A DNA stretch of 64,000 nt from an uncultured delta proteobacterium (GCA_963771175.1 CAVYSY010000024.1:192001-256000), one strand, 5' to 3'; shown: positions 3,271-64,000, numbered from the stretch's first letter. Made by a program: numbers and translations. Notes: generated from the sequence alone by a model not told the origin.

Positions 3271-3271
3271 G

Positions 3272-6733: not shown

Positions 6734-6736
6734 GGT

Positions 6737-8281: not shown

Positions 8282-8389
8282 GGGTATGCACGCCTCTGTC
8301 TGTAGGAGAGGCGGCCCGTCTAGCAACCACCCCTCTGGGTGTCAACGAAGCGTGCGACCCGTGTCCATCAATGGTTCCGCGCCCGATTT

Positions 8390-8884
<495 letters not shown>

Positions 8885-8937
8885 GTCCTGTCCCCTCCAA
8901 CGATATTTCCACTCTACCCGTTCCCCTCCCCCCCAGC

Positions 8938-9462
8938 CTATTGCGAATGGAGCTTTTCGTCTCGGCGCGCGGTGACCGCGCTCCCCAACCGGGCCACGTC
9001 CCGGACCAGATCCTGGGCCCTGCTCCTCAACGTGACCAACTCCTCCTCCAATGTGCGCCGGTACTCCGCACCGAAGGCTCGCTCCCCCAGTTGATCCTGA
9101 AAACCCTCGAACACCTCGGAGAGATCCCGCTCGAGCTGATCGATGTGATTCTTATGGAACAAGAATGAGCGCTTGATGTCCTCCAGGGTGTGACCTTCCG
9201 CCATCATCTTTTTGATGGCGTTGATCCGCCGCACCGCTTCCACCGGATACAGCCCCCGGCTTCCCTGGTGCTTCCCCTTGCGCCCCACTCGGCGGCTGCG
9301 AGGTAGCAGTCCTACCTGCACATACTTGCGGAACGTCGCCTCGGAGAGCTGAACGCCGCGCGGACGGAAGATCTCGACGATCTCCCTCGCGGGCAGGCCA
9401 CCGGCGAAGTCGCGTTCGATGCGCTCGAGCTCCTCGGGTTCCAGCAACCGCGTCCCTTCCAT
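8938..9462 (-). CDS. MerR-like HTH transcriptional regulator
   Basis: [15 protein letters not shown]...[29 protein letters not shown]-terminal coiled coil. Confidence 0.75.
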
Positions 9463-9638
9463 TGAATATACGCTACTGAATGGGCGCCCTTGAATGCCAG
9501 AAAGCTCGCGAAGGTGTCAAGAAGAGCCTGTAGCGGCCTGTAGCGGTGGGCGCACGAAGGCCGGGCGCTGCGGGCGGGCCGAGGCGCGACGCGGGGTTAC
9601 GGGAGCTGGCGAAGGACGGCCGACGTCGGCGACATCAA

Positions 9639-27823: not shown

Positions 27824-30115
27824 ATGCCCTCACTCCCCAAAGACTCAGGTCCGGGCTCCCGGGAGTGGCCCGGTGTGTCCGCCAGTGGACCGGGCGCCGC
27901 CGAAGAGGAACTCCGGGCCAGCAACCGCCTGCTGCGGGCGCTCAACGAGGCCCAGGCGGACTTCATCCGGGGTGGTGACGCGGCCGCGCTGTTCGAGCGG
28001 CTGCTCGCGGTGCTGCTCGAGGTGACGGGCAGCGCCTCCGGCCTCATCGGCGAGGTGCTGACCGCCTCCGGGGGAACGCCTTCGCTCCGGGTCCTCGCCA
28101 GCACGCCGCGGGACTGGACGGACGCGCTGAGGGAGCACCCCGCCGGGCAGGACGCCGGGAACCCGGAGCCGCGAGACCTGCGCACGCTCGTGGGCGTCGT
28201 CCTCACCACCGGCCGGCCCGTGCAGTCCGGGGATGTCGCCCCGACGGCCCACGGCACCCCTCCCGACACCTCCCTGCACACCTTCCTCGGCCTGCCCCTC
28301 GAGTCCGCGGGCGAACGGGTGGGACTGGTGGGCCTCGCCAACCGCCCCGGCGGCTATGACGCCCGGGTCATCGAGCTCCTCCAGCCCGTCCTCTCCACGT
28401 GCGGCAACATGCTGCTCGGCCGGAGGAACGAGCACCGACGGCGCCAGACCGAGGAGGAGCAGTGCCGCGCCCTCGCCGAGAGCGCCGAGCGGATGCGGCT
28501 GACGCTGGACAACGTGGAGAACGGCTTGTGGGATTGGGACATCGCCACCCAGAAGCTGTACATGAGCCCGAAGTGGCTGGGCATGCTGGGATACCAAGAG
28601 GGGGAGCTGGAGCCCTCCATCGAGGTGTGGAGGTACCTGTGCCATCCGGAAGACCTGGCCGAAATGAACCGGCGCTTCCAGGCGTACCTGTCGGGGACCA
28701 CTCCCCTCTACGAGGTCGAGTACCGCGCGCGGTGCAAGGGTGGCGGGTGGAGGTGGATGCTGGGCCGAGCCAAGGCGGTGGCGCGCGACGAGCAGGGCCG
28801 TCCGCTGCGCATGGTGGGCACCAACCTGGACATCGATGCCCGCAAGCGCGGTGAGGAGCGCCTGCGCGCCCTGGTGCGGGCGATCCCGGACCTCATCTTC
28901 CGCAACAGCGCCGACGGCACCTACCTCGACTTCGAGGTCAACAACGACCGCCTGCTGGCGCCCGCCGAGTCCCTCATCGGCAGCAATATCCGCCAGATGC
29001 CGATGCCGCAGCCCGTCATCGAGAAGAGCCTCCTGTACATCGGGCGCGCCATCCAGCAGGGCACCCTGCAGGTCTTCGAGTACACGTTGGAGCAGCCGCA
29101 AGGGCCCCAGCACTACGAGGCACGCATCTACCGGAGCGGGCCGAACGAGGCGGTGTCGCTCATACGCAACATCACCGAGCGCAAGCAGACGGAGGAGCGC
29201 CTGCGCCAGCAGGAAGAGGAGCTGCGGCGCCACCGCGACAGCCTGGAGGAGCTGGTGCGCACCCGCACCGAGAAGCTCCGCATGGCCACGCTCGAGCTGG
29301 AGGATCAGCAGGCCCAGCTCATCCAGGCCGAGAAGATGGCCTCGCTGGGACAGATGGCGGCCGGCGTCGCCCATGAGATCAACAACCCGGTCAGCTATGT
29401 GATGAGCAACCTGGGCACGCTCGACGAGTACATCTCCGTGCTCACCCCGCTGCTCCAGCTCCAGCGCGGGCTGCTGGACAGCCAGGAGCCGGGGGCCGAG
29501 GGCACTCGGGAGGAGCTGCTCGCTCGCATGCGCGAGCTGTGGAATCAGGGCGACCTGGACTTCATCCTCTCGGACATGCCCGAGATGATCCAGGAGTCGC
29601 AGGCGGGCACCCGGCGCATTCAGGAGATCGCCCAGGGCCTGCGCTCGTTCGCCCGCGAGGACTCCGGCGCGCCGCAGCCCGTGGACGTGAACGCGGAGCT
29701 GTCCTCCACGCTGAAGATGGTGTGGAACGAGCTGAAGTACAAATGCGAGGTGAAGCGCGACTTCGGGCCGCTGCCCCCCGTCAACTTCCACCCCACCCAG
29801 CTCGCCCAGGTGTTCACCAACCTGCTCGTCAACGCGGCGCAGGCCATCGAGACGCGCGGGGAGATCCGCATCCGCACGCGGCACGAGGGCAATGACGTGG
29901 TGGTGGAGATCGCCGACACGGGCAAGGGCATGACGCCGGAGACGCTCTCCAAGCTCTTCACGCCCTTCTTCACCACCAAGCCACGCGGCCAGGGCACGGG
30001 GCTGGGGTTGTCCGTCAGCTACGGCATCATCACCCGTCACAAGGGCCGCATCGACGTGCAGAGCGAGCCCGGCAAGGGCAGCACCTTCATCCTCCGCCTG
30101 CCCACCTACCCGTGA
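27824..30115 (+). CDS. GAF-PAS-PAS sensor histidine kinase
   Basis: GAF, PAS (GLWDWD..HPEDL), H-box GVAHEINNP, GQGTGLGL. Confidence 0.93.
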   Translation: MPSLPKDSGPGSREWPGVSASGPGAAEEELRASNRLLRALNEAQADFIRGGDAAALFERLLAVLLEVTGSASGLIGEVLTASGGTPSLRVLASTPRDWTDALREHPAGQDAGNPEPRDLRTLVGVVLTTGRPVQSGDVAPTAHGTPPDTSLHTFLGLPLESAGERVGLVGLANRPGGYDARVIELLQPVLSTCGNMLLGRRNEHRRRQTEEEQCRALAESAERMRLTLDNVENGLWDWDIATQKLYMSPKWLGMLGYQEGELEPSIEVWRYLCHPEDLAEMNRRFQAYLSGTTPLYEVEYRARCKGGGWRWMLGRAKAVARDEQGRPLRMVGTNLDIDARKRGEERLRALVRAIPDLIFRNSADGTYLDFEVNNDRLLAPAESLIGSNIRQMPMPQPVIEKSLLYIGRAIQQGTLQVFEYTLEQPQGPQHYEARIYRSGPNEAVSLIRNITERKQTEERLRQQEEELRRHRDSLEELVRTRTEKLRMATLELEDQQAQLIQAEKMASLGQMAAGVAHEINNPVSYVMSNLGTLDEYISVLTPLLQLQRGLLDSQEPGAEGTREELLARMRELWNQGDLDFILSDMPEMIQESQAGTRRIQEIAQGLRSFAREDSGAPQPVDVNAELSSTLKMVWNELKYKCEVKRDFGPLPPVNFHPTQLAQVFTNLLVNAAQAIETRGEIRIRTRHEGNDVVVEIADTGKGMTPETLSKLFTPFFTTKPRGQGTGLGLSVSYGIITRHKGRIDVQSEPGKGSTFILRLPTYP

Positions 30116-45402: not shown

Positions 45403-45681
45403 TCGAGTCCTCCGGGGTGGGGGGGACCGCGAATGCTACACGCCATCGGCCGCTTCAGGAGAGGCGTGGGGCCCGCTTTTCGTCGTCTCGGGACGGGAAG
45501 TCCGGCAGGCCACGGCCATCCACCCGTGGACCCGAGAGGGGCCATGGCCGTCCCCAAGGAGGGCACCCGGGCGGATTGCGGTCTGCCCGTGAATCGCGGC
45601 GGCGCTGGCTTCATCGCGCCGTTATGGCCATCCCCTTGAATTTACTTCTGAATCCCACCCAGTCCTGTAGAGAATGGCCAC

Positions 45682-48067
<2,386 letters not shown>

Positions 48068-48083
48068 CGCCGCGCCGGCACGA

Positions 48084-48116
48084 GAAGAAGGCGGGAGGAG
48101 ACCTCCTGCCTTCTTC
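48084..48116. terminator. Hairpin between convergent genes
   Basis: GAAGAAGGCGGGAGG-aga-CCTCCTGCCTTCTTC. Confidence 0.65.
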
Positions 48117-48133
48117 CCCGCCGCCGTGGAGGC

Positions 48134-49661
48134 TCAGCCGCCCTTGGGGAAGGAGCGGCAGGCCTCGTCGTAGTCCTTCCACCAGCCCTCGAGGGCCTTG
48201 AGGTCGGTGGGGCGCGGCTCGTCGCCGCCGCCCGCCATGCTCAGGTAGTCGTGCAGCAGCGGCCGGAAGTGCGGGTGCGCGCAGCGGTCGATGATGTCCA
48301 CGGCGCGGCGCCGGGCGAGCGGATCTCCGTGTTGAGCGCGAAGCCCTGCTCGGTGACGACGCACTTGATGTCGTGCTCGGTGTGGTCGATGTGCCGCACG
48401 TACGGCATCACGCAGCTCACCGTGCGCCCGTCCTTGCAGCTGCCGCATCGACGGCGTGTGCACGATGCTGAGGTAGGCGTTGCGGAAGAAGTCGCCGCTG
48501 CCGCCCAGCCCGTTGACGATGCGCGAGCCGTCGATGTGCGTCGAGTTGACGTGGCCGTAGATGTCCACCTCGATCGGCGTGTTCATCGCGATGACGAACA
48601 GCCGCGAGATGAGCTCCGGGCAGTTGGACAGCCACATCGGCCGCAGCACCAGCTTGTCGCGGCAGCGGTCGAACAGCTCGCTCGAACTCGCTGCGCCCCT
48701 CGGCCGAGAAGGAGACCGCGGTCGCCGAGGCGCACTCGAACTTCTCGTCGTCCTCGACGTAGCGCATCATCCCGTCCTGGAACACCTCGGTCCAGAAGCG
48801 GATCTTCTGGAAGGGCGAGTCGTAGAGCTCGCCGACGATGGCGTTGGCCACGTTGCCCACCCCGGACTGGATGGGCGGCAGGCGCTTGCCCCAGTCGAAC
48901 CGCTCGCGGCAGCTGCAGGAGGAAGTCGATGACGTTCTGGGCGATGCGGCGGTCGGTGTCGCTCGCCGCCTTGAAGGGCACCGGGTAGTCGGGCGTGCTG
49001 CGACTCGACGACCGCCACCACCTTGCGCGTGGTCGAACTCGACGTAGGGCGTGCCGATGCGGTCGCGCACGTTGACGATCGGCAGCGGCCAGCCCACGTG
49101 CGGGTGCACCGGCGGGCAGCGACGATGTCGTGGAAGCCGGTGTAGTCCGGCACCGCGGTGTTCACCTCGAGGATGATCTTCTTGGCCTTGGCCAGCGCCT
49201 CGGCGGAGATGCCCACCGACGAGGTGAGGATGACGCTGCCGTCCGGGCGGATGCGCGAGACCTCGACCACCGCCACGTCGATGTCGCCGTAGAAGCCGTA
49301 CATCAGGTTGCGCGCGAAGACCGACAGGTGGACGTCGGTGAAGTCCATCTCGCCCGCGTGGATGAGCTTGCGCGAGGCGGCCGAGGACATGTACGGCCCG
49401 CGCTTGCGCGATGAAGGGCGCGATCGGGTTCTCGACCTCGTCCGAGAGCGAGGCGCCGCTGAGCAGGGTGATGCGGGTGTCGGGCGCGGTCTCCGCGAGG
49501 TGCCGGGCCAGCGCCGGGAGGAAGATCTTGGGCTCGCCCGACTTGGTGAAGCCGCTGATGGCCACGGTGTTGCCGTCGGTGACGTGCTTGACCGCCTCCT
49601 CGACCGGCACGACCTTGGCCAGCAGCTCCGCGTTCTCGATTCGCTCCTGAAGTGTGCTCAT
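48134..49661 (-). CDS. Acetyl-CoA hydrolase/succinate CoA-transferase family (heavily frameshifted)
   Basis: [50 protein letters not shown]. Confidence 0.85.
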
Positions 49662-49901
49662 GGAGTGTCCTGCTCTAGTGCCGCGCGCCCCGGCTGTCCA
49701 CGATACGATGTAACCCCCCTGGACCCTGGCGAAGGGAGGGTCCGAGCGCGGCCTTCCAGGGTAAGCACGGTCAGAAGGCGTACGGGCGGGCGCCTGCCAG
49801 GCCACCGGGTCGCGGCGCAGTGTCTGGCGCTACGGCTTCCAACCCTGAGAAGAGGACCCCACGCGGCCACCTGCAAGGGGCTCGGCCTGCCGCTGCGCGT
49901 C

Positions 49902-50007
49902 CCCTTACCCGTGTCCCCCTGATTTTACTCGGACCATCTCACACCCACCTTGCACCACCTCATCCCACTCGAATCCGCGCTGGAGAGGCACGCTGGGGGC
50001 ACATGGA
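49902..50007. repeat. Degenerate copy of island-end sequence (homologous to 62197-62321)
   Basis: Shared blocks CCCTTACCCG, TGATTT(T)ACTCGG, CACCTCATCCCAC, CCGCGCTGGAG, GGGGCACATGG in the same order. Confidence 0.8.
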
Positions 50008-50058
50008 CGTGCCCCATCACCACACAGGCCCTCATCTGTGACTGGTATGGAGGCGCGC

Positions 50059-51981
50059 ATGAGGAAGCGCATCCTGGATGGTCCAACGACTCGCTCCGCC
50101 GACCATGTGGCCGAGAACGTGGCGAAGCTGAAGGAACTGTTTCCCGATGCGTTCACGGAGGGGAAGGTCGACTTCGACGTACTCAAGCAGGTCCTCGGCG
50201 GGGCCGTGGACGAGCGCGAGGAGAAGTACGGGCTCAATTGGCACGGGAAGCGGCGAGCCCGCCAACTCGCGCTGACGCCGTCGACCGGGACCTTGCGCCC
50301 CTGCCCCGAGGAGAGCGTGGACTGGGAGACGCACCCAGAACCTCTTCATCGAGGGTGACAACCTGGAAGTCTTGAAGTTGTTGCAGAAGAGCTACGCCGG
50401 GAAGGTGAAGCTCATCTACATCGACCCGCCCTATAACACTGGCAAGGACTTCGTCTATCCGGACGACTTTCAGGACAACATCAAGAATTACCTGGAGCTG
50501 ACCGGGCAGGTGGAGGGCGGACAGAAGATCACGTCCAACACCGAGGCGTCGGGGCGGTTTCATACGGATTGGTTGAACATGATGTATCCGCGGCTGAAGC
50601 TGGCGCGGGACCTACTGCAAGAGGAGGGCCTGATATTCGTCAGCATCGACGACGGCGAGCACGTTCGCCTGGCGGCGACGCTCGATGAGATTTTCGGGCC
50701 GGAGAACTTCGTCGCCAACTTCATCTGGAAGCGGAAGGCCGGCGGTGGTGACGACAGCGGACACGTTGCCGCGGAGCACGAGTACGTTGTTTGCTATGCG
50801 CGGGACCTGCCGCGAGCTGGCGTGGCTGCGATTCAGCACGAAAGCCCGGCGATGACAGCGAAATACAATCGTTCGGAGAACGGGCGCCGGTACTACCTGG
50901 AACGTCTCGACAAGACGAGCCTGACGTATAGCCCGTCGATGGACTTCGAGATTGAATGTCCGGATGGGACGAAGACTCGTCCGCCCCAGCCAGACCCGCG
51001 CGTGCCGACAACCATCTGGAGGTGGAGTCGCTCAAAAGTCGAGGAGAGGCGACAGGAGCTCGTGTTCGATCGCGACAATAAAACAAACGAATGGCGCATC
51101 TACACCAAGACCATGGAGTCCCTCGACGGCGTAACTCCACGCAGCCTGCTGGTGGATACCGAGCATGGCCGGAACCGTGATGGCACCCAGGAGCTCGCGG
51201 AACTGCTTGGGACGAAGGTCTTCAACAATCCCAAGCCGCTCAAGCTCCTGGGCCATCTGCTTTCGATTGGAGCGAAGGACAAGGACGCCGTGGTCTGCGA
51301 CTTCTTCGCTGGCTCGGGGTCGACGGGGCACGCCCTCTTTCGCCAGAACCTGAGCGATGCAGGGCATCGGCGGTTCATCCTCGTGCAGTTGCCAGAGCCG
51401 TTGCATCCGGATGATTCGCGCGAGCGTGCCGCTACCGAATTCTGTGACAATCTCGGAAAGCCTCGAACGATCTCCAGAATTGACGAAGGAACGCCTTCGC
51501 CGTGCAGGCAAGAAGATTCAGGAAGACGCCACGGCGAATCCCGGCGATCTCGGCTTCCGCGTGTTCAAGCTCGACAGCTCGAACATTCGCGCCTGGGAGC
51601 CGAACCGGGACGCGTTGAAGGACTCCCTCTTCGACAGCTTGGAGCACATCAAGGAGGGCCGGAGCCCGGACGACATCCTCTACGAGCTGCTGCTCAAGCT
51701 CGGCCTCGATCTGTGCGTGCCCATCGAGCAGCGGACCATCGCCGGCAAGACGGTCCACAGCATCGGCGGCGGCGTGCTGATGGTCTGCCTCGCCGAGAAG
51801 ATCGCCGCGCGAGGACGTCGAGCCGCTGGCGCTGGGCATCGTCGAGTGGCACAAGGAGCTGGCCCCGGCCGGCGAGACCACCTGCGTCTTCCGCGACAGC
51901 GCCTTCGCCGACGACGTGGCCAAGACGAACCTCGCGGCCATCCTCGAGCAGCACGGCCTGGCGAACGTGCGGAGCCTGTAG
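50059..51981 (+). CDS. mod: Type III R-M methyltransferase subunit (frameshifts near 50332, 51480, 51810)
   Basis: EKYGLNWHGK, IEGDNLEVLKLL, IYIDPPYNTG, DFFAGSGSTG, FILVQLPE, GFRVFKL. Confidence 0.92.
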
Positions 51982-51993
51982 GAGCGTCCGGCG

Positions 51994-54900
51994 ATGAAGC
52001 TTCACTTCGAGCCGAACCTCGACTACCAGCTCCAGCGCCATCGAGGCGGTCTGCGACCTGTTCCGCGGCCAGGAGATCTGCCGCACCGAGTTCACCGTCA
52101 CCCGCGAGCGCTCGGCGGACCTGCAGCTCCTGCCCGGCATGCGAGAGCGACCTCGGCATCGGCAACCGGCTCACACTGCTCGACGACGAGCTGCTCGAGA
52201 ACCTCGAACGACATCCAGCTCCGCAACGGCCTGCGCCCCGTCGGCAGACGCTCGCCTCCGGCGATTTCACCGTGGAGATGGAGACCGGCACCGGCAAGAC
52301 CTACGTCTACCTGCGCACGATCTTCGAGCTGAACAAGCGCTACGGCTTCACCAAGTTCGTCATCGTGGTGCCGTCGGTGGCCATCAAGGAAGGCGTCTAC
52401 AAGACGCTCCAGATCACCGAGGAGCACTTCCGCGGCCTCTACGCCAACGCGCCCTTCGACTACTTCCTCTACGACTCGGCCAAGCTCGGCCAGGTGCGCA
52501 ACTTCGCCACCAGCCCGCACATCCAGATCATGGTGGTGACGGTCGGCGCCATCAACAAGAAGGACGTCAACAACCTCTACAAGGACAGCGAGAAGACCGG
52601 CGGCGAGAAGCCCATCGACCTGATCAAGGCCACGCGCCCCATCCTCATCGTGGACGAGCCGCAGAGCGTGGACGGCGGCCTCGAGGGGCGCGGCAAGGAG
52701 GCGCTCGGCGCGCATGAACCCGCTCTGCACGCTGCGCTACTCGGCCACGCACGTCGACAAGCACCACATGGTCTACCGGCTCGACGCGGTGGACGCCTAC
52801 GAGCGCAAGCTGGTCAAGCAGATCGAGGTCGCCTCGGCCACCGTCGAGGGCGCCCACAACAAGCCCTACGTGCGGCTGGTCTCCGGTCGAGCAACAAGCG
52901 GCGGCGTCATCACGCGCGAAGGTCGAGCTGGACGTGCAGACGGCCGACGGCGTCCGGCGCCGGCGAGGTGACCGTCCAGGACGGCGACGACCTGGAGCAG
53001 ACCACCGGCCGCGCCGATCTACGCCGACTGCCGCATCGGCGAGATCCGCGTCGGGCAAGGGCAACGAGTTCCTGGAGCTGCGCGTGCCCGGCGGCGAGCA
53101 GTACCTGACGCCCGGCCAGGCCTGCGGCGACGTGGACGCCGCTGGCCGTGCAGCGGCAGATGATCCGCCGCACGATCAAGGAGCACCTCGACAAGGAGAA
53201 GCGCCTGCGCCCGCAGGGCATCAAGGTGCCTCAGCCTGTTCTTCATCGACGCGGTGGACCAGCTACCGGCAGTACGACGCGCGACGGCAACCCGGTGAAG
53301 GGCGACTACGCCCGCATCTTCGAGGAGGAGTACCGGCGCGCTGGCCAAGCACCCGGACTACCAGACGCTCTTCAAGGAGGTGGACCTGACGCGCGCCGCC
53401 GAGCGAGGTCCACGACGGCTACTTCTCCATCGACAAGAAGGGCGGCTGGACCGACACCGCCGAGAACAACCAGGCGAACCGCGACAACGCCGAGCGCGCC
53501 TACAACCTGATCATGAAGGACAAGGAGAAGCTGCTGAGCTTCGAGACGCCGCTCAAGTTCATCTTCTCCCACTCGGCGCTGCGCGAAGGCTGGGACAACC
53601 CGAACGTCTTCCAGATTTGCACCCTGCGCGACATGGGCACCGAGCGCGAGCGCCGCCAGACCATCGGCCGCGGCCTGCGTCTGTGCGTGAACCAGAAGGG
53701 CGAGCGCCTGCGCGGCTTCGAGATCAACACGCTGACCGTCATCGCCACCGAGAGCTACGAGCAGTTCGCCGAGAACCTGCAGAAGGAGATCGAGGAGGAC
53801 ACCGGCATCCGCTTCGGCATCGTGGAAGAGCACCAGTTCGCCGCGATCGCCGTGACGGGACGCGGACGGCAGACCGACGCCGCTGGGCGTCGAGCAGTCG
53901 AAGGCGCTCTGGGAGCACCTGCAAGGCGCCGGGCTACATCGACGCCAAGGGCAAGGTGCAGGACTCGCTGCGCAAGGCGCTGAAGGACGGCACGCTGTCC
54001 GCTGCCGCCGAGCGTTCGAGGCCCAGCTCCAGCAGGATCGACGGAGATTCTCCGCAAGCTCGCCGGGCGGCTGGAGATCAAGAACGCCGACGAGCGCAAG
54101 CCGATTGCGCACCGCGGCAGGCCGTGCTGCACAGCGAGGAGTTCAAGGCGCTGTGGGATCGCATCAAGCACAAGACCACCTACCGCGTGCAGTTCGACAA
54201 CGAGAAGCTGATTGCAGAGCTGCGTCACGGCGCTCCGCGACGCGCCGCCGATCGCCAAGACCCGCGCTGCAATGGCGCAAGGCCGACCTCGCCATCGGCA
54301 AGGCGGGCGTGGAGGCGACGGAGACGCAGACGCTGCCGCGCCGGTGGTCCTCGACGAAGGCGACATCGAGCTGCCCGACCTGCTGACCGACCTGCAGGAC
54401 CAGACCCAGCTCACCCGCCGCACCATCTACCGCATCCTGACCGAGAGCGGCCGGCTCGACGACTTCAAGCGCAACCCGCAGCAGTTCATCGAGCTTGCGT
54501 GGCCGAGGCCATCAACCGCAGCAAGCGGCTCGCCCTGGTGGACGGCATCAAGTACCAGCGGCTCGGCGACGAGCACTACTACGCCCAGGAGCTGTTCGAG
54601 GAGGAGGAGCTGACCGGCTATCTCAAGAACATGCTGGCGGCGACGAAGTCGGTCTACGAGCACGTCGTCTACGACTCGGACGTCGAAGCGAACCTTCGCC
54701 GAGCAGCTGGAGAAGAACGAGGCGGTCAAGGTCTACGCCAAGCTCCCGGGCTGGTTCAAGGTGCCGACGCCGCTCGGACGCTACAACCCGGACTGGGCCG
54801 TGCTGGTCGAGAAGGACGAGGGCGAGCGCCTCTACTTCGTGGTCGAGACCAAGAGCAGCCTGTTCACGGACGACCTGCGCGACAAGGAAAGCGCGAAGAT

Positions 54901-55009
54901 CGAATGCGGCAAGGCCCACTTCGCCAGCCTCGGAGTCAGCGAGCCGCCGCCCAAGTACACCGTCGCGCGGACGCTCGAGCAGGTCCTAAACGAGGTCGAG
55001 CCGACCTGA
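51994..55009 (+). CDS. res: Type III R-M restriction subunit (heavily frameshifted)
   Basis: EMETGTGKT, DEPQ, LRYSATH, SALREGWDNPNVFQICTL, QTIGRGLRL, YNPDWA..VETK nuclease motif. Confidence 0.92.
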
Positions 55010-55019
55010 TACCACCCGG

Positions 55020-56449
55020 TCACTGGCTCGTCCCCGGAGGCTGCGTGCTCGCCAGCCATCCCCCGCCGAGCGCTTTGTAGAGGTTGACGAGGTTGGACAG
55101 GCGGGAGAGCTGCGCGTCGATGAGCGTCTGCTGGGCGTTGTAGAGGTCTCGCTGAGCCGACAACAGCGTGATGTAGCTGTCCACGCCCGCCCGGTAGCGC
55201 TGTTCGGACAAGCGGAAGCGCTGCTCCTCGGCCGCCACCCGCTCCGTCTGCGCCTTGAGCTGTTCCTCGAAGGAGGCGCGGGCGACGAGGGCATCCGCCA
55301 CCTCGCGGAATGCCGTCTGGATGGAGGCCTCATAGCGGGCAATCTCGATGGACTTGGAGACCTCCGCCACCTCGAGGTTCGCCCGGAGCCGGCCGCCGGT
55401 GAAGATGGGCAGGCGAATCTGGGGCACGAAGCTCCAGACGCCCGCACCGCCGGAGAAGAGCCCGACGAGCTCCGTGCTGGAGACGCCACCGGACCCCGTC
55501 AGAGTGATGGACGGGAAGAACGCGGCACGCGCCGCCCCGATGTTCGCGTTGGCCGCCTTGAGCTGGTGCTCGGCCTGGAGGATGTCGGGCCTGCGCTGCA
55601 GCAGGTCCGACGGCAGTCCCGCGGGCAGGTCCGCGAGGAGCTTCTGGGTGGACAGGGGCCGCGGCGCGGGAAGCTCGGCGGGCAGGGGGCGGCCAATGAG
55701 GAGCACCAGGGCGTTCTCCGCCTGAGCGTACTGGCGCTTATAGAGTTCCAGGGTGAAACGGCTGGCGTGGACCTGGGTCTCCGCCGTGCGCAGGTCCAGT
55801 TCGGAAGCCCGGCCGAGCTCGTAGCTGCGCCGGGTGATGTCGAAGGAAGCCTGCACCGTCTCGAGTGTCTGGCGGGCGAGGGCCAACTGTTCGTCGAGCG
55901 CGCGCTGGGTGAGGTAGGCCCGGGCGACCTCCGCCACGAGCGACAGGTGCGCGCTGCGCTGCGCCTCGCCCAGTGCGAGGTACTGCTCCAGTGCCTGGTT
56001 GTTGAGGCTGCGCACCCGGCCGAAGAAGTCGAGCTCGTAGGCCGTCACGCCCACGCCCACACTGTAGGCGTTGAGGGTCGTGGCCTCCCCCGTCGGGCTC
56101 TGGAAGGCGGGCATCCGCTGGATGGCGTCGCTGGCGGTGGCGTTGACCGTGGGGAAGAGGTCCGCGCGCTGGATGCGGTACTGCGCCCGGGCGCGCTCCA
56201 CGTTCAGCGCGGCGATGCGCAGGCTGCGGTTGTTCTCGAGGGCCAGGGAGATCAGCTCCGCAGGCGCTCATCCCCGAAGACGTCCCGCCAGCCAATGTCG
56301 GCCGCGTGCACGCCCGTCTGCCCCTCGCCGCCCTCCCCTCCTGGAAACACGGAGACGACGGGTGCCTCGGGACGCTGGTACTTCGGCGCGAGCGTGCAGC
56401 TCGCCAGCAGGGCCGCGCTCGCGGCGGCCAGCAGAGAATGCCTAACCAT
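55020..56449 (-). CDS. RND efflux outer-membrane lipoprotein (OprM/NodT family; frameshift near 56258)
   Basis: Lipobox [30 protein letters not shown]. Confidence 0.9.
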
Positions 56450-59400
56450 GGACCGCACCTCCGGCGGTGGCAGGCGCCTGGGGAGCCGCGGTGGGCTCCC
56501 TCGAGAACCTGCGGAGAATGACGACGAAGAACAGCGGCACGAAGAAGACGGCCAGCACGGTGGCGGAGATCATGCCGCCGATCACGCCGGTGCCGATGGC
56601 GTTCTGGCTGCCCGAGCCGGCGCCGCTGGCGATGGCCAGCGGCAGCACGCCGAGGATGAAGGCGAGCGAGGTCATGATGATCGGGCGCAGGCGCATGCGG
56701 CACGGCTTCGAGCGCCGCGTCGAGCAGGCTCCTGCCCTGCTCGTACAGCTCCTTGGCGAACTCGACGATCAGGATGGCGTTCTTGGCCGACAGACCGATG
56801 GTGGTGAGCAGGCCGACCTGGAAGTAGACGTCGTTGCTGCAGGCCGCGCCATCAGCGCGGCCAGCAGCGCGCCGAGGACGCCGAGCGGCACCACCAGCAT
56901 GACCGACGAACGGGATCGACCAGCTCTCGTAGAGCGCGGCCAGGCAGAGGAACACGACCAGCAGCGAGAGGGCGTAGAGCATCGGCGCCTGGGAGCCGGA
57001 CAGCCGCTCCTCGTAGGACAGGCCGGTCCACTCGATAGCCGATGCCGGCGGCAGCTGCTGGACGAGCTCCTCCATCGCGCGCCATCGCCTCGCCGGAGCT
57101 GTTGCCCGGCGCGGCCTCGCCGAGGATCTCGACCGAGGGGATGCCGTTGTAGCGCTCCAGCTTCGGCGAGCCGTAGGTCCACTCGCCGGTGGCGAAGGCC
57201 GAGAACGGCACCATCTCGCCCTGCGCGTTGCGCACGTACCAGCGGTCGAGGTCCTCCGGCTGCATGCGGAAGGGCGCATCGCGCCTGCATGTAGACCTTC
57301 TTCACGCGACCGCGGTCGATGAAGTCGTTGACGTAGGTGCCGCCCCAGGCCGAGGACAGGGTGGTGTTGATGTCCGCCAGCGACAGGCCCAGCGCCGCTC
57401 GCCTTCTCCTGGTCGATGTCGACGCTGGAACTGCGGCGTGTCGTCGAGGCCGTTGGGGCGCACCTTCGTCAGCGCCGGGTTCTGCGCGGCCAGCCCGAGG
57501 AGCTGGTTGCGCGCCGCGCATCAGCGCCTCATGGCCGAGTCCGCCGCGGTCCTGCAGGTACACGTCGAAGCCCGTGGCGTTGCCCAGCTCCAGGACCGCC
57601 GGCGGCACGAAGGCGAAGACCATGCGCGTCCTTGAGCTGCGAAGAACACTGCCATCGCGCGGCCCGCCAGCGCCTTCGACGTTCTGCGCGGGCGGCTCGC
57701 GCTCGCTCCCAGTCCTTGAGCTGCACGAAGGCCATGCCGGCGTTCTGGCCGCGGCCGCCGAAGCTGAAGCCGGCGATGGCCGAAGACCGAGCTCGACGGC
57801 GTCCTTCTCCTCGTCGAGGTAGTAGTCCGCACCTTCTCGAGGACCGCTGGTCGGTCCGCTCGCAGCGTGGCGCCGGCCGGCAGCTGCACCTGCGCGAAGA
57901 TGCACGCCCTGGTCCTCGTCCGGCAGGAAGGCGGTCGGCAGGCGGACGAACAGCAGGCCCATGCCGCCGACGATCGCCACGTAGACGACCATGGAGCGGC
58001 CCGTGCGTCCCGAGCAGCACGCCGCACGACGCCGCTGCGTAGCGTGTCAGCGCCGCGCTCGAAGGTGCGGTTGAACCAGCCGAAGAAGCCGCGCCGTTCT
58101 CGTGGCCGTGGCCGTGCGGCCATCGGCTTGAGCAGGTGGCGCAGAGCGCCGGGGTGAGCGATCAGCGCCACCAGCACCGACAGCACCATGGCCGACGACG
58201 ATGGTGATGGAGAACTGCCGGTAGATGACGCCGGCCGAGCCGCCGAAGAAGGCCATCGGCACGAACACCGCCGACAGCACCAGGCCGATGCCGATCAGCG
58301 CGCCGGTGATCTGCTCCATCGACTTGCGCGTCGCCTCCTTCGGCGACAGGCCCTCCTCGCTCATCACGCGCTCGACGTTCTCGACCACCACGATGGCGTC
58401 GTCCACCAGCAGGCCGATGGCCAGCACCATGGCGAACATGGTCAGCGTGTTGATGCTGATAGCCGAACACCGCCAGCACGCCGAAGGTGCCGAGCAGCAC
58501 CACCGGCACCGCGATGGTCGGGATCAGCGTGGCGCGGAAGTTCTGCAGGAACAGGAACATCACCAGGAAGACGAGCACGATGGCCTCGATCAGCGTCTTG
58601 ACCACCTCCTCGATGGACGAGGCGCACGAAGGGCGTGGTGTCGTAGGGATAGATCACCTTGCACGCCCGGCCGGGAAGAACGTCTGCGAGCTCGCTCGAC
58701 GCTGTCGCGCACCGCCGGCCACGGTGTCCAGCGCGTTGGCGCCGGTCGGCCAGCTTGATGGCCATCGCCGCGGCCGGCTTGCCGTTGTAGCGCGCTGGCT
58801 GATGTCGTAGTTCTCGCCGCCGAGCTCGACGCGGGCGACGTCGCGCAGCGCACCTGCGAGCCGTCCGGCGTTGACGCGCAGCAGGATGTTGCCGAACTGC
58901 TCCGGCGTCTGCAGGCGGCTCTGCGCCGTGACGGTGGCGTTGAGCTGCTGGCCCGGCGATCGCCGGCAGGCCGCCGAGCTGGCCGGCGGAGACCTGCACG
59001 TTCTGCGCCTGGATGGCGCCGCTCGACGTCCGCCGGCGTCAGCTGGTAGTTCATGAGCTTGTCCGGGTCGAGCCAGATGCGCATGGCGTACTGGCGCGCC
59101 GAAGAGCTGGACGTCGCCCACGCCGCGGCACGCGGCTGAGCGGGTCCTGCACGTTGGCGGCCATGTAGTCGCCGAGGTCGTAGCCGGTCATGCTGCCGTC
59201 GTCGGAGATGAAGCCGACGATCATCAGGAAGTTGTTGCACGGCCTTGTCGACGCGCACGCCCTGCTGCTGCACCTCCTGCGGCAGCAGCGGCGTGGCCAG
59301 CTGCAGCTTGTTCTGCACCTGCACCTGGGCGATGTCCGGGTTGGTGCCGGCGTCGAAGGTCAGCGTGATGGTCACGTGCCGTCCGAGTCGCTCGCCGAGT

Positions 59401-59637
59401 CCATGTAGCGCAGGTCGTCGAGCCCGTTGAGCTGCTGCTCGATGACCTGCGTGACGGTGTTCTCGACCGTCTCGGCCGAGGCGCCGGGGTAGATGGCGCT
59501 GATGCTCACGCGCGGCGGCGCGATGCTCGGGTACTGCGCGATCGGGCAGGCTCAGGATCGACAGCGCGCCCGGCCAGCATGATGACGATGGCGATGACCC
59601 ACGCGAAGATCGGCCGGTCGATGAAGAATCTGGCCAC
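56442..59637 (-). CDS. HAE1 RND efflux permease (AcrB/MexB-like; heavily frameshifted)
   Basis: [42 protein letters not shown]. Confidence 0.9.
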
Positions 59638-59670
59638 GGAAGTTCTCGCTGATGCGGTGAGCGGATGGGC

Positions 59671-60905
59671 TCAGCGCGTGAATTGAGTGACGGGGGCACT
59701 CGCGGCGGCGGGCACGGCGCGCACCTCGCTGCCCGGCCGCACCTTCTGCAGGCCCTCGACGATGACACGGTCGCCCGCCGCCAGCCCCTCGGTGACGAGC
59801 CACTTGTCACCCACGCTCCGCGCCGCCGCGAGCGTGCGCAGCTCGACCTTGTTCCCCGCGCCGACGACGAGCGCCGTCGCCTCGCCCTTGGGGTCGCGCG
59901 TGACGGCCACCTGCGGCACGAGCAGCGCGTCCGGGTCCACGCCTTCCTCCAGCCGCGCGCGGACGAACATGCCCGGCAGCAGCCGCTGCTGGGGGTTCGG
60001 CACGAGCACCCGCAGGGTGATGGAGCCCGTGGACGGGTCCACCGTCACGTCGGAGAACTGCAGCGTGCCCGGCTCCGAGTACTCGGTGCCGTCCTCCAGG
60101 AGGAGCTTCACCTTCGCGTGCGTGGCGTCCGCGCGCTGAAGCCGCCCGCTCTCCAGTTCGCGTCGGAGCCGCAGCAACTCGGCGCTCGACTCGGAGACGT
60201 CCACGTAGAGCGGGTCGAGCTGCTGCACGGTGGCCATGAGGGTGGCCTGGCCCTGCTGGACGTAGGCGCCCTCGGTCACCGTCGCGCGGCCGATGCGGCC
60301 CGACACGGGCGCAGTGACGTGGGTGTAGCCGAGGTTGATTTGCGCCGTCTGGACGGCGGCCTTCGCCGCGGCGACGTCCGCGAGGGATACCTTGTGCGCC
60401 GCGGTGACGTTCTCGTACTCCTGCTTGCTGATGGCCCGCTCCGCCAGCAGCTCCGTGTAGCGCTCCTCCTTGAGGCGGTGTCTGCTCCAGGTTCGCCTCG
60501 GCCCGCGCGAGCGTGGCCTTGGCGCTGTCGAGCGCCGCCTGGTAGGGCTGGGGATCGATCTCGAAGAGCACCTGCCCCTCCTTCGACGTCGCTGCCCTCG
60601 GTGAAGAGCCGCTTGAGCACGATGCCGTTGACGCGGGCGCGCACCTCGGCCACCCGGTACGCGGAAGTCCGGCCCGGCAGTTCCTTGGCGAGCGCCACGG
60701 GCGCCGCGGCCAGCTGCACCACCCCTACCTCCACGGGACCCGAGGGACCCCGGCCAGTTGGAGCGCCCGGCTTGTCGCCACACGCGCCAAGAAGCAGGGC
60801 TCCGAGGGCGGCCACGCCCAAGCCCCTGACTCGCGGGGTGGGAAAAGGCCAGCGGGTACATGCCTGCTCGGCAGCTCTCTTCAGGACGGATTCTGTTTTC
60901 GCCAT
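59671..60905 (-). CDS. RND periplasmic adaptor lipoprotein (AcrA/MexA-like; frameshifts near 60480-60580)
   Basis: LGAC lipobox, ELPGRTSAYRVAEVRARV, APVSGRIG, LLPGMFVR. Confidence 0.9.
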
Positions 60906-60964
60906 CTCTCCCTCGGCCTCGGTCGGAGGGCCCCGCGGGGGCATCCACGAGGCGACAAGCAGCA

Positions 60965-61047
60965 AACTAAACCGTTCAGTTTAGTTCTATTGCCGCGGAG
61001 AGATACGGCTGGAGGCATTTCCCGTCAAGACTAAACCGTTCAGTTTA
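60965..61047. promoter_or_regulatory. Two TetR-type operators in the divergent promoter region
   Basis: ACTAAACCGTTCAGTTTA occurs twice (60966-60983, 61030-61047); the first is palindromic AACTAAAC-N6-GTTTAGTT; a TTGACG -35 on the minus strand at 61023-61028. Confidence 0.8.
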
Positions 61048-61097
61048 TTCAGTTCGAAGGGGTGATATGCGGGCCAGGCGAGCGAGAAAGGCGGGAT

Positions 61098-61715
61098 ATG
61101 AGGAAGACACCAGCGGAGCTCTCACCGACCAAGCGTGCGCAGATTCTCAGTGGCGCGTCCGCGGTCTTCAGTGACCTGGGGTACGAGCGGGCGAGCGTCG
61201 ATGCGATTGCCGCCCGCGCCGGGGTCTCCAAGGCGACGATCTACAACCACTTCGAGGACAAGAAGGCGCTGTTCGTCGCATGCCTCTCCGAGGAGACGCG
61301 CGCGGTGGAGGAGCGTCTGCGCGAGGTGCTGGACACGCCGTCGGGCGATCTGGAGCGTGACCTCCAGCTGATTGGGGAGGCCTTGATGCGCCTGCTCCTC
61401 TCACCTGCCATCCTCAAGCGGTACCGCATCTTCGCGGCACAAGTGGACCGCTTTCCGGAGCTCGGGGTGGCGCTGTTCGAGCAGGGTACGAGTGCCACGC
61501 AACTGCGGATGACCCGCTACCTGGAGCGAGCCAGCGCGACGGGGGCCTTGAGACTGGAGGACCCCGCCCAGGCCGCCCTGGACTTCCTGTCCCTCTGCCA
61601 TGGCGACATCCCCATCCGGGCACAGCTCGGGGTCCTCAAGAGCCTCACGGACGAACAGATTCGAGCCAGGGTCGCTCACGCCGTGCGTGTCTTCCTCTGT
61701 AGCTACCGCCCGTGA
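61098..61715 (+). CDS. TetR/AcrR family transcriptional regulator
   Basis: ILSGASAVF..GYERASVDAIAARAGVSKATIYNHFEDKKALF; divergent from the pump. Confidence 0.93.
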   Translation: MRKTPAELSPTKRAQILSGASAVFSDLGYERASVDAIAARAGVSKATIYNHFEDKKALFVACLSEETRAVEERLREVLDTPSGDLERDLQLIGEALMRLLLSPAILKRYRIFAAQVDRFPELGVALFEQGTSATQLRMTRYLERASATGALRLEDPAQAALDFLSLCHGDIPIRAQLGVLKSLTDEQIRARVAHAVRVFLCSYRP

Positions 61716-61918
61716 GGGCAGCCACCACCTCTTCCAACCCCTGCGCTACCAGGTGGCCACCGCCGGCCTGAGCCCCTCGGACATCGCGATGCCCATCCGC
61801 TCGCAGTTCGCTGGGCTGCCCGACGTGTCCGTACAATGGGGCGCGCAGAGAGCGTGAGCCTGGAGAAACGCAGGGTCGGCGCCGAGGACGGCGCGCGGGT
61901 GGTCGGCGAGAGCGCCTG

Positions 61919-62062
61919 GGGCCGAAGGGGGACATCGTGAGCCGCTACACGACACTCCCCTGGGAGTCCGTCTGGGCGGAGGTGGCGAAGCTGAAGGGGG
62001 AGCTCCGGTCCCCGTCGACGTCGCCGGCAGGAGGCGCGCTGCCCTCGGACGAAGCCCCGTAG
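61919..62062 (+). pseudogene. C-terminal remnant of a tyrosine recombinase/integrase
   Basis: Manual translation GPKGDIVSRYTTLPWESVWAEVAKLKGELRS...*, resembling the myxobacterial integrase tail around the catalytic Tyr; abuts att features. Confidence 0.6.
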
Positions 62063-62081
62063 CCACAGTCGAGCCACAGTC
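62061..62081. repeat. Direct repeat AGCCACAGTC x2 (putative integrase arm-type sites)
   Basis: agccacagtc-g-agccacagtc directly after the integrase remnant. Confidence 0.6.
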
Positions 62082-62090
62082 CGGATCAGC

Positions 62091-62129
62091 AAAAGAAAAA
62101 AGCCCCCGAGTCACTTGGACTCGGAGGCT
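62091..62129 (-). terminator. Rho-independent terminator downstream of the tRNA fragment
   Basis: AGCCTCCGAGTC-CAAGT-GACTCGGGGGCT followed by TTTTTCTTTT on the minus strand. Confidence 0.8.
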
Positions 62130-62135
62130 CTTTCG

Positions 62136-62161
62136 GGTTGCCCAGGGCGGGATTCGAACCC
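62136..62161 (-). mobile_element. att core: displaced 3' end of a tRNA (probably tRNA-Leu)
   Basis: Minus strand GGGTTCGAATCCCGCCCTGGGCAACC = T-arm plus acceptor 3' strand, with no 5' half; CCTGGGCA end is typical of GCCCAGG- tRNA-Leu. Confidence 0.75.
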
Positions 62162-62196
62162 GGTACGGGGGGATGGAAAACCTCAAGCAGGACGCG

Positions 62197-62321
62197 CCCT
62201 TACCCGCCATCCCCTTGATTTACTCGGGTTCGTCGTCCCGCACTATCCCACCCCGCGCCACCTCATCCCACCTCGTCCCCCCTGAACCCGCGCTGGAGGG
62301 GCACATACGGGGCACATGGGC
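62197..62321. mobile_element. End of a second integrative element, with GGGGCACAT direct repeats
   Basis: GGGGCACAT at 62298-62306 and 62309-62317; adjacent to the att core; homologous to 49902-50007. Confidence 0.65.
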
Positions 62322-62468
62322 GCGTCACACCACCGCCTCGGCGATCGTTGGTCGCGCCAACTCGTGCTCACACGCCTGACCTAAAGTTCAGAGGCCTCCG
62401 CCCGAAGCGGGCAGGTTCGGGGAAACCCCGCTGAGGCTTCCCGCTATGGGTGTAGGAGGAGCCCACAT

Positions 62469-64000
62469 GCTGAAGTCCAAAAAGAAGCTTTTCGAGGAGA
62501 CCCGGAAGGGTTTGCAGGCGCTTCAGGAAGAGAAGGTCTACGACCAAGCCCTCGCAGAGAACCCCGAATCCTGGAACTTGCGTCTTCGAGCTGCAGAGCC
62601 TGCTCGCCCTGGGCCACAGGGAGGAAGCGCTCCCACTCTTCCAGCAGGCTCTGGCGCTCCATCCGGAGGCGGATGACAGCGCCGCAGCGGCAGCTGCCCG
62701 CCATGACCTAGCACATGCGCTCGCGGATGAGCAGGAGAACGTCTTCGCGCTCAACACCGCCAGGCAACTCTACAGCCGTGCGCTGGAATCATCGGCCCGC
62801 CAACGCGCCCCGCTCCGCTCCGCGGAGACCGAAAGCTCTCTCGCCGTCTGCCTGCGCCGGATGGCTCACCTTGTCTCTCGGGAGGATCGCGCGCCGCTCT
62901 TCGAGGAGATCGAACGACGCTACAGAAGTGCCATATGGAGGCTGGAGGGCTGCGGTCAGCTGGGCCTTCAACAACTCTCCGAGGTCCACCTGAACCTCGC
63001 CAACTTCCTGGGAACCGAACGTGGGGAGGTTGAGCGTGCCATCCGCGAGTATGACCGAGCGGAGGAATGCGCCCGGCGTGCCAAAGAGTTCTTCGGTCCC
63101 TCCCGCAACTCCATTCCCCTGCGGGCCCGGCTCTCCTCCGCGAGCCTGCTGCGCGTGCGTGGACGAAAGCAAGACCTCAAGCAGGCCGAGCGATTGGCGA
63201 AGGAGGTCATCCAAGCGGGGGACCCGCAGTACCAGGGGCTCGCGCGCATGGAGTTCGCCGAGGTCATCCTCGCAGGGGATGCTCCCGACCGGGCGACCCG
63301 CGCCCGCGCTTTGCTGGAGCAGGTGCGATGGAACGTGCTGGACCAGTTCGAGCACCTGAGGCACTTGGCAGCCCTGCTCAGGCGTTCCGATGGACGTCAG
63401 GCCGCCATCGAGCTGCTGAGCGGATTCATCGAGAAGGCCATCCACCATCGGGCCCAGGCCACCATCTCCGACTTCGAGGCGGACGCGGCTTCGGTCGATC
63501 TGCAGGATGCCGCGGAGTTGGTGGCGCGCATCCTCGCGCAGGACCAACAGGATGCGCTGCACGCCTTTCTGGCACTCGAGAATACGAGTGGCTTCCGCTT
63601 CGCCGAGAACCTCTCCTCGTATGTGCGAAGGCCCGAGGAGCCGTTGGCCAAGGCTCTTTACGACGAGCTGAAGAAGCACATGGGACAGACGTACATGCTC
63701 GACACCTTCGCGCAGTCGATGAAGCGCCAGGCCCCCGATGAGCAGCGGGAGTACCTCGACAACATCATTCCCCAGTTGAAGCAGTCTGCCGAGGACAAGG
63801 ACTCCGGCTTCATCCTGCCCAGCTGCATCGCCGCCCGAAAGGCGCCCGTCCCCTCAGAATACTTCGACACGTTGGTCGAAAAGGGGCGCCAGCAAGTGCT
63901 CCGGCTGCGCTACTCGCTCGCCCGGGCGGACACGACCTTCGCGGAGGTCCAGCACATCCTCAACCAGAACCTTGGCTCCGAGGAGCTGACCGACGTGCTC
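62469..64000 (+). CDS. Large TPR-repeat protein, probably TPR-CHAT (frameshift near 62598; runs off window)
   Basis: AGGAGG RBS + ATG 62469; after the frameshift an open frame to 64000: LLALGHREEALPLFQQALAL..RQLYSRAL..VHLNLANFL..AIREYDRAEE..ALHAFLALENTSGFRFAENL. Confidence 0.7.

Follow-up and report, generated by a model that had tools for sequence, protein, structure and literature searches.

How did a Type III restriction-modification (R-M) operon, a resistance-nodulation-division (RND) efflux pump and scraps of integrase sequence come to lie side by side in a 64,000-nt stretch of DNA from an uncultured delta proteobacterium (GCA_963771175.1 CAVYSY010000024.1:192001-256000; the whole stretch, of ~68% G+C, is called the window below)? 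An earlier account made from the DNA alone, here termed the sequence-only reading, had proposed tandem integrative islands at a tRNA-Leu-like attachment (att) site between 49,902 and 62,321, built by at least two and probably three integrations. We find that the locus is best explained as a series of decayed integrative elements arrayed in tandem at the 3' end of a tRNA-Leu(GAG) gene in an Archangium/Vitiosangium-like myxobacterium, a reading to which we assign a probability of about 0.8. By comparison with related loci, we recognize relics of at least three elements, namely A (49871-50034 followed by the R-M genes mod and res), B (61922-62162) and C (62163 onward). The att-site island proposal is upheld by a displaced tRNA fragment, by an element B block collinear with an intact integrase-tRNA junction in a relative, and by an island end that adjoins orphan tRNA fragments in two other genomes.

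A displaced tRNA-Leu(GAG) 3' end at the putative att core

At 62139-62162 on the minus strand lies an exact 24-mer match to the 3' end of tRNA-Leu(GAG). The 24-mer occurs once only in the window, and ARAGORN detected no tRNA gene anywhere in the 64,000 nt. Scanning genome contigs for the 24-mer gave at least 122 occurrences in at least 120 loci (referred to by number, such as L052), 80 of which have full 10-kb flanks; these counts are lower bounds. Among the matches listed, 114 of the 122 occurrences fall within a tRNA-Leu gene, with the anticodons GAG (76), TAA (27), CAA (6) and CAG (5), while one lies in a tRNA-Asp gene and the remaining seven are orphan fragments. In the loci listed, the Myxococcaceae version is tRNA-Leu(GAG), placed downstream of gap-pgk-tpiA and followed by a conserved terminator, and both L076 and L052 read gap-pgk-tpiA-tRNA-Leu(GAG)-terminator and then variable DNA. 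The intact Myxococcaceae tRNAs continue as ...GAACCCG-cacacc where the window has ...GAACCCG-gtacgg. As this break in homology, at 62162, falls between T-stem positions 49 and 50, the fragment comprises position 50 to the discriminator, and on this comparison we identify 62139-62162 as a true tRNA-Leu(GAG) 3' end. The sequence-only reading had placed this isolated end at 62136-62161, which is off by 1-3 nt, and the distribution of the 24-mer among the matches listed bears out its assignment to tRNA-Leu.

Downstream of the tRNA 3' end on the same strand is an intrinsic terminator (62134-62096) with a 17-pair stem and a T-run, likewise as first described. It is kept beside tRNA-Leu(GAG) across Myxococcaceae loci, and the changes in its stem are compensatory. 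Comparing L021, L039 and L052 with L076, L025, L027 and the window (62096-62134), we observed the stem forms CCGAGTC..GACTCGG, CCAAGTC..GACTTGG and CCGAATC..GATTCGG. The CCAAGTC stem is present in all three examined loci that have a full-length integrase beside the terminator (L021, L039 and L052); at L071 a 359-aa integrase adjoins the tRNA, but without such a hairpin. A whole-window Rfam scan returned zero families at gathering score, and the sole notable match by E-value, to ctRNA_p42d, scored 32 bits, below the gathering score of 50, and corresponds simply to the terminator hairpin. On the far side of the core, the core-proximal segment GGATGGAAAACCTCAAGCAG (62163-62192), which also stands beside the orphan fragments of L064 and L040, contains CCTCAAG ~20 nt from the core; in intact tRNA-Leu(GAG) the anticodon loop lies 22 nt from the core, and CCTCAAG may be the vestige of a longer tRNA copy in the element's attP.

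An integrase remnant collinear with an intact junction in Vitiosangium

Immediately left of the terminator and fragment are the remains of an integrase gene. Positions 61922-62062 on the plus strand correspond by tblastn to the last 46 codons and the stop of an Mx8-type tyrosine integrase, including the region of the catalytic Tyr, which we attribute to element B. The closest counterpart is L052, a locus of Vitiosangium sp. GDMCC 1.1324 (contig NZ_PZOX01000019.1, 122272-142295), where a complete tyrosine integrase gene (397 aa) lies convergent to the intact tRNA and is accompanied by an excisionase-like helix-turn-helix (HTH) gene and then a DISARM system (DrmMII, DrmD/A and DrmMI). Translated 61922-62059 is identical to the C-terminus of this integrase at 38 of 46 residues (83%, E=1e-16), is equivalent to its residues 352-397 and thus falls short of a full Mx8-like catalytic domain; Pfam alone assigned no family to the remnant. 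The L052 integrase is in turn 46% identical to Int of phage Mx8 over 381 aa (E=7e-99). At the DNA level, window positions 61919-62162 are collinear with the intact L052 integrase-tRNA junction, with 87.8% identity over 245 nt. The sequence-only reading had recognized an integrase C-terminal remnant here and had carried it upstream into an 'HHLF...' stretch (61716-61921); the former stands, whereas the latter could not be linked to any integrase.

Directly past the integrase stop, a motif search located the tandem AGCCACAGTC-G-AGCCACAGTC at 62061-62081 on the plus strand, a putative arm-type site of element B. This doubled repeat had already been picked out in the sequence-only reading, and a match to it arose in only 1 of 100 shuffles. 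Both 10-mers vary jointly in relatives, reading AGCTACAATC twice in L052 and CGCTACATCC then AGCTACAGTC in L029. A search for the left end of element B by means of its repeat found no second tandem copy in the window, and single copies occurred at chance level. In L100 (624 nt, from a Gemmatimonadales metagenome-assembled genome, MAG), an orphan tRNA-Leu fragment stands between GGTGACAGTC/G tandem repeats and an inverted C-terminal remnant of an L052-type integrase; either the element family extends outside Myxococcota or this contig is mis-binned.

Two copies of a left end and their paired repeats

On the opposite side of the fragment begins the sequence that we assign as the left end of element C (62163-62346, plus strand, by profile extent). 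It shares 75-77% identity with the DNA that adjoins the orphan fragment of Myxococcus sp. 1LA (L064) and is clearly related to that of the MAG OH_PFB_83 (L099), again beside an orphan fragment, and its first 27 nt recur in L040. A truncated copy from the same family, assigned to element A, is present on the plus strand at 49871-50034, as delimited by local alignment and by nhmmer with the copy itself in the training set. This copy is without the outermost ~30 nt and without the tRNA fragment. Aligned to the window, 62164-62340 reached a local score of 73 at 49.8-50.2 kb, the 99th percentile across 616 background tiles being 27; a repeat finder matched the two window copies at 75% over 77 nt, and the left copy is 74% identical to L064 over 113 nt. 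The degenerate island end reported at 49902-50007 and the better-preserved one at 62197-62321 are thus both real, at the extents given here. A candidate third copy in 61716-61925 was rejected, with a score of 22 against a background 95th percentile of 23. The best match in the window after the true copy (score 37) is a 33-nt segment upstream of the glutaminyl-tRNA synthetase (GlnRS) start (45614-45646, ..GCCATCCCCTTGAATTTACT), which resembles the conserved inner part of the left end either by chance or as a shared promoter-like element.

Both left ends carry a tandem 11-nt repeat of the GGGGCACA type, found by motif search on the plus strand as GAGGCACGCTG/GGGGCACATGG at 49985-50006 and as GGGGCACATAC/GGGGCACATGG at 62298-62319, and the integrase remnant carries the AGCCACAGTC type. 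The GGGGCACA-type tandem motif has two matches in the window, and two or more were seen in 0 of 100 shuffles. It is also found in the left end of L064 and in the 3' end of the integrase gene at L021. The genomes of L064 and L099 each hold, on other contigs, an intact tRNA with an abutting integrase of 401-403 aa (L021 and L039), a type that shares only 23-25% identity with that of L052. Within a genome, the left-end 11-mers are found again in the 3' end of the integrase gene, and the two vary together: L021 (integrase 3' end) and L064 (left end) have the same 21-mer, GGGGCACACTGGGGGCACATG, and L039 and L099 have GTGCGACATACGTGC(G/A)ACATG in common. In a circular attP, the repeats would fall in direct orientation at about -75 and at +135 to +155 nt around the core. 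These paired 11-nt repeats are likely arm-type integrase sites, a role that we treat as putative. Given the two integrase types and two arm-repeat types, the window would hold relics of at least three elements, which strengthens the earlier estimate of at least two and probably three integrations. The integrase of element C would be of the L021 type, with GGGGCACAnnnGGGGCACATG in its 3' end.

The same site in relatives

We then consider what relatives carry at this position. Among the matches listed, an integrase or its remnant abuts the 3' side of the tRNA in 10 of 120 loci. Sister elements with an integrase are L021, L039, L052 and L071, and two further loci with an integrase or remnant, L083 and L029, were recognized at the DNA level. 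The downstream content differs from locus to locus. In addition to DISARM at L052, we observed Mokosh and a DrmD-like helicase at L040, a Zac/PDC-M27-like phospholipase D (PLD) protein with SNF2 at L025 and an AHH toxin with its immunity gene at L076, and other loci listed contain TsiV immunity genes, NERD-kinase giants, an AbiEii-like ATPase and transposases. Several unrelated defence systems thus occupy one site across genomes, in what is a small sample drawn from the matches listed. L040 mirrors the layout of the window, with a 37-residue integrase remnant, the terminator and the orphan fragment (10025-10190), then an island with Mokosh (MkoA/MkoB) and the DrmD-like helicase (1-10000).

Among the 120 loci listed, none has the window's own mod, res, TetR or membrane fusion protein (MFP) genes beside the tRNA, and just one has an RND match close to a tRNA, namely L049, whose distant pump shares 49-62% identity over short pieces. 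The stretches 49662-49900, 60967-61061 and 62335-62470 likewise have no match in the tRNA-Leu loci listed. In Archangium violaceum, the closest species with a usable locus, the CoA-transferase gene that borders the array in the window is 7.5 kb from the intact tRNA, and the genes in between are wholly different, with none from the window among them. The sequence-only reading had anticipated a CoA-transferase gene next to the tRNA with different or no cargo, and had held that an invariant region would speak against islands; among the matches listed, content varies between relatives. A literature search found no paper on this tRNA-Leu(GAG) hotspot of Myxococcaceae.

Genes between the ends

The R-M genes, the RND pump and the TetR repressor were all found where they had been proposed, most of them in pieces. 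The Type III methyltransferase gene mod (50047-51990, plus strand, end approximate) is spread over at least three frame pieces: PADLOC matched MTase_III (PDLC03634, E=1.5e-126) at model positions 6-92, 106-464 and 466-576 in three frames, and Pfam assigned N6_N4_Mtase. The best non-self relatives of Mod are 76-77% identical, with none above 77%, and the named top matches are Proteobacteria and Streptomyces, none of them named as myxobacterial. The restriction subunit gene res follows (51990-55009, plus strand, start approximate) in at least seven frame pieces recognized by PADLOC and by Pfam ResIII; its match to REase_III (PDLC03647, up to E=2.9e-84) spans model positions 51-986 of 989, as 51-236, 231-290, 375-444, 458-614, 631-725, 724-817 and 878-986. 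The Mod-then-Res arrangement of Type III systems is therefore present, in interrupted frames.

The pump genes are on the minus strand. An outer-membrane factor of the NodT/OprM type (55023-56449; Pfam OEP, TIGR01845) has one frameshift near 56258 and is collinear, in two frames, with its 478-aa counterparts, at 96% identity in Archangium lansingense and 95% in Vitiosangium sp.; L052 and the Vitiosangium gene share one contig of 261,573 nt, on which more than 10 kb lies between the gene and the tRNA. The AcrB/MexB-type permease (56445-59640) is broken into at least ten frame pieces, with Pfam ACR_tran matched at 2-23, 30-85, 87-205, 220-276, 327-381, 379-469, 646-765, 763-831, 831-959 and 958-1020 on separate stop-to-stop pieces, and tblastn with the L049 pump aligned seven pieces in alternating frames. 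The AcrA/MexA-type periplasmic adaptor (59674-60966) has an intact open frame, in which NCBIfam AcrA (E=1.3e-105) covers residues 165-419 only; its N-terminal ~160 residues match no adaptor model, and the coding phase shown by G+C at third codon positions (GC3) shifts at 60.45-60.8 kb. Divergent from the pump operon is an intact gene for a 217-aa TetR-family repressor (61062-61715, plus strand; Pfam TetR_N, TetR_C_7). The tripartite set of adaptor, permease and outer-membrane factor (MFP, ACR_tran and OEP) with its divergent TetR is therefore complete in kind, with a permease that is not intact. A conserved RND fragment used as a query for close relatives was uninformative, its matches being dominated by a universal transmembrane segment.

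To the right, the first gene of element C (62466-64000, plus strand, from translations and GC3 phase) runs past the window edge and has a frameshift near 62580. It is tetratricopeptide-repeat (TPR)-like: its atlas lookalikes are TPR proteins at 0.93 with low recognition, a weak match, and neither a Pfam nor a PADLOC family was found on it.

Frameshifts across the tract

From ~47.34 to 62.6 kb, the GC3 coding phase switches every 200-600 nt, with GC3 of 0.96-1.00 within each piece, which amounts to at least 30 single-base frameshifts over ~15 kb (47340-62600). Positions 1-47 kb show long coding phases and no comparable switching, as judged from the phase plot rather than gene by gene. The tract starts not in an island but at 47.34 kb, within the housekeeping GlnRS/YqeY fusion gene, in which NF011291 is split across two frames. 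An alignment of the CoA-transferase gene with that of A. violaceum, read by eye, shows 11 single-base indels (8 insertions and 3 deletions), none of them in homopolymers. Elsewhere we counted at least two frame changes in mod, at least six in res, at least nine in the permease gene, one each in the outer-membrane factor gene and the first gene of element C, and none in TetR.

The tract is probably an uncorrected assembly error rather than real decay, since it starts outside the islands, its indels are all one base long and insertions are in the majority. In bacteria, the natural decay of genes favours deletions, and these vary in length. That the frameshifts are real, and that mod/res, the pump and the CoA-transferase gene are genuine pseudogenes in a decaying region, we consider unlikely: pieces of 472 aa (Mod) and 393 aa (outer-membrane protein) are indeed annotated in the public record, on a contig of 295,226 nt, and the indel density is uneven (11 in the CoA-transferase gene, 1 in the outer-membrane gene, 0 in TetR), but every one of the CoA-transferase indels is a single base outside homopolymers, GC3 is held in each frame piece, and the tract sets in within a housekeeping gene beyond the islands, with no such switching in the phase plot of 1-47 kb. 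The gene track is unreliable across this part of the assembly.

Gene order and other features of the window

Gene order and profile searches place the GlnRS/YqeY fusion gene at 45682-48067 (plus strand) and an acetyl-CoA hydrolase/CoA-transferase gene at 48134-49661 (minus strand). The latter is 88.8% identical in DNA to that of A. violaceum, and synteny with this species stops at 49661, which by alignment is the CoA-transferase start codon. On the strength of this identity and of the 95-96% matches of the outer-membrane protein, the host is identified as an Archangium/Vitiosangium-like myxobacterium. A sigma-70 promoter scan gave 0 sites.

Further to the left, two pairs of long direct repeats (23736-24908 with 27908-29812, and 10797-11513 with 12747-13472) are 70-76% identical and resemble paralogous genes, possibly sensor-kinase-like as judged from inverted-repeat motifs. 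At 5697-6150, a unit of ~150 nt with 27-nt sub-repeats occurs three times in tandem within a long minus-strand open reading frame (3272-6733).

Order of events and alternative explanations

The mechanism that we propose is borrowed from the integrase family. A tyrosine integrase would recombine attP with the chromosomal tRNA gene; attP would duplicate the 24 nt at the 3' end of the tRNA and include a terminator, and this element copy would regenerate the tRNA while the old 3' end and the DNA downstream of it would be pushed to the far (left) end. Element C, which starts at 62163 and leaves the window, would thereby have displaced the fragment at 62139-62162. The fragment, the terminator, the AGCCACAGTC repeats and the 46-codon tail would be what is left, at its right end, of an earlier Mx8-type element, B, the remainder having been deleted, and 49871-50034 with mod/res would represent the left end of element A, a member of the same family as C that has lost its att fragment and integrase. 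The fragment, the junctions, the homologies and the differing content of relatives are observed directly; we infer the order of these events, the function of the arm sites and the arrival of mod/res on element A.

Several observations weigh against this account. No L021-type integrase is present anywhere in the window, the left copy at 49.9 kb has neither a tRNA fragment nor a terminator beside it, the window does not include the intact tRNA or the element C integrase, and the left-end family comprises four copies in three genomes. Element A should be the oldest by position, yet its mod gene is strain-specific, whereas the RND operon to the right of mod is shared at 95-96% protein identity with A. 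lansingense and Vitiosangium sp.; this puts in doubt either the left-is-oldest order or the pump's status as cargo. In addition, just 10 nt separate the ends of res and the outer-membrane gene, so that there is no room for a right end of element A. From these comparisons, the pump may be a lineage-specific flank or old cargo, and mod/res may have come later into a slot by the left end.

These points lead to an alternative that we regard as somewhat unlikely, in which only B and C are true integrations at the tRNA. The RND/TetR genes would then be a lineage-specific flank that once lay directly downstream of the tRNA, and the left end with mod/res (49.9-55.0 kb) would have arrived separately, by recombination or as a swapped cassette, instead of being the oldest member. 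The high identity of the outer-membrane protein in A. lansingense and in Vitiosangium sp., where it shares a contig with the tRNA-Leu island, fits this explanation, as do the lack of a close relative for Mod, the difference in G+C between mod (0.61-0.63) and the pump (0.69-0.71), and the 10-nt spacing between the ends of res and the outer-membrane gene. However, the left end at 49.9 kb is oriented as that of element C, and by integration geometry the DNA from there to the tRNA should be element; moreover, the outer-membrane protein is patchily distributed, at 79% in one Myxococcus sp. and then 70% or less, and neither A. violaceum nor A. gephyra has such a pump within 10 kb of the tRNA. It is highly improbable that the repeated sequence of ~130-180 nt is not a recombination end at all and instead serves as a promoter or regulatory leader (for example sigma-54-like, GGCAC-N5-GGGCA) of unrelated operons. 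Both window copies do lie upstream of plus-strand genes, a -24/-12 promoter likeness is apparent by eye, and a 33-nt partial match precedes the GlnRS gene, but the repeated sequence adjoins an orphan tRNA fragment in three genomes, the adjacent genes are oppositely oriented in L064, and the 11-mer pair recurs within the integrase 3' end of the same genome and co-varies with it.

Beyond the stacking of decayed elements at the tRNA, a more speculative reading, which we consider less likely than not, is that two unrelated integrase lineages, one Mx8-like and one XerC/D-like of 400 aa, share the 24-nt core, with each using its own 11-bp arm-repeat pair to keep elements separately excisable in arrays. 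The tRNA-Leu(GAG) gene might then be the main docking site for defence exchange in Myxococcaceae, with a swappable cargo slot just inside the left end. Such a slot, if true, would explain a strain-specific Type III R-M system beside an older, shared pump operon.

Relation to known integrative systems and implications

The Islander survey describes tyrosine-integrase insertion into the 3' part of a tRNA gene (tDNA), with the gene regenerated by the island (PMC4383910). Of its 3919 islands, 3760 have a 3' fragment and 1836 a T-stem site, and it counts 125 tandems of two or more and 4 of three or more (PMC4383910). The present locus resembles those islands, as there described, in its displaced 3' fragment at the far end and in a crossover in the T-stem region (PMC4383910). 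By its definition, a displaced fragment is oriented as its target gene, which holds here for elements B and C only. Unlike the arrays described there, this one has a single att fragment for three relics, and two of its three integrases are either absent or cut down to 46 codons; since a fragment and an integrase are expected per member, the array would not be called under the survey's rule.

The element B family, represented by L052, resembles the Int/Uoi module of Mx8 in its integrase (the 46% identity given above), in an excisionase-like HTH gene just upstream, as uoi is in Mx8, and in belonging to the same host group. The two differ in integrase length, 533 aa for Mx8 Int against 397 aa in L052. 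In Mx8, attP lies inside int and integration alters the C-terminus of Int, and the target is tRNA-Asp; element B instead targets tRNA-Leu(GAG), with the core ~80 nt beyond the integrase stop. The int region of Mx8 does not contain the AGCYACARTC repeat. A lambda-type complex attP has arm-type sites, and the putative sites described here are similarly short direct repeats on both sides of the core that are specific to an integrase lineage; unlike in lambda attP, elements of the L021 type have one repeat pair inside the integrase coding sequence. As in defence-island hotspots, a single integrase-served site has received different systems, Type III R-M in the window and DISARM, Mokosh and PLD/SNF2 in relatives, with Myxococcaceae and tRNA-Leu(GAG) as the setting particular to this one.

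Collectively, these findings describe a clear but ordinary case of well-known island stacking, at a site that is now documented for the tRNA-Leu(GAG) gene of Myxococcaceae. Genetic tools for myxobacteria rely mainly on Mx8 and Mx9 integration. For the integrative elements of this group, the analysis supplies a map of the att core (tRNA positions 50-73) and of the element ends, together with candidate arm sites, and it marks tRNA-Leu(GAG) as a place to seek new defence systems in the large genomes of myxobacteria.

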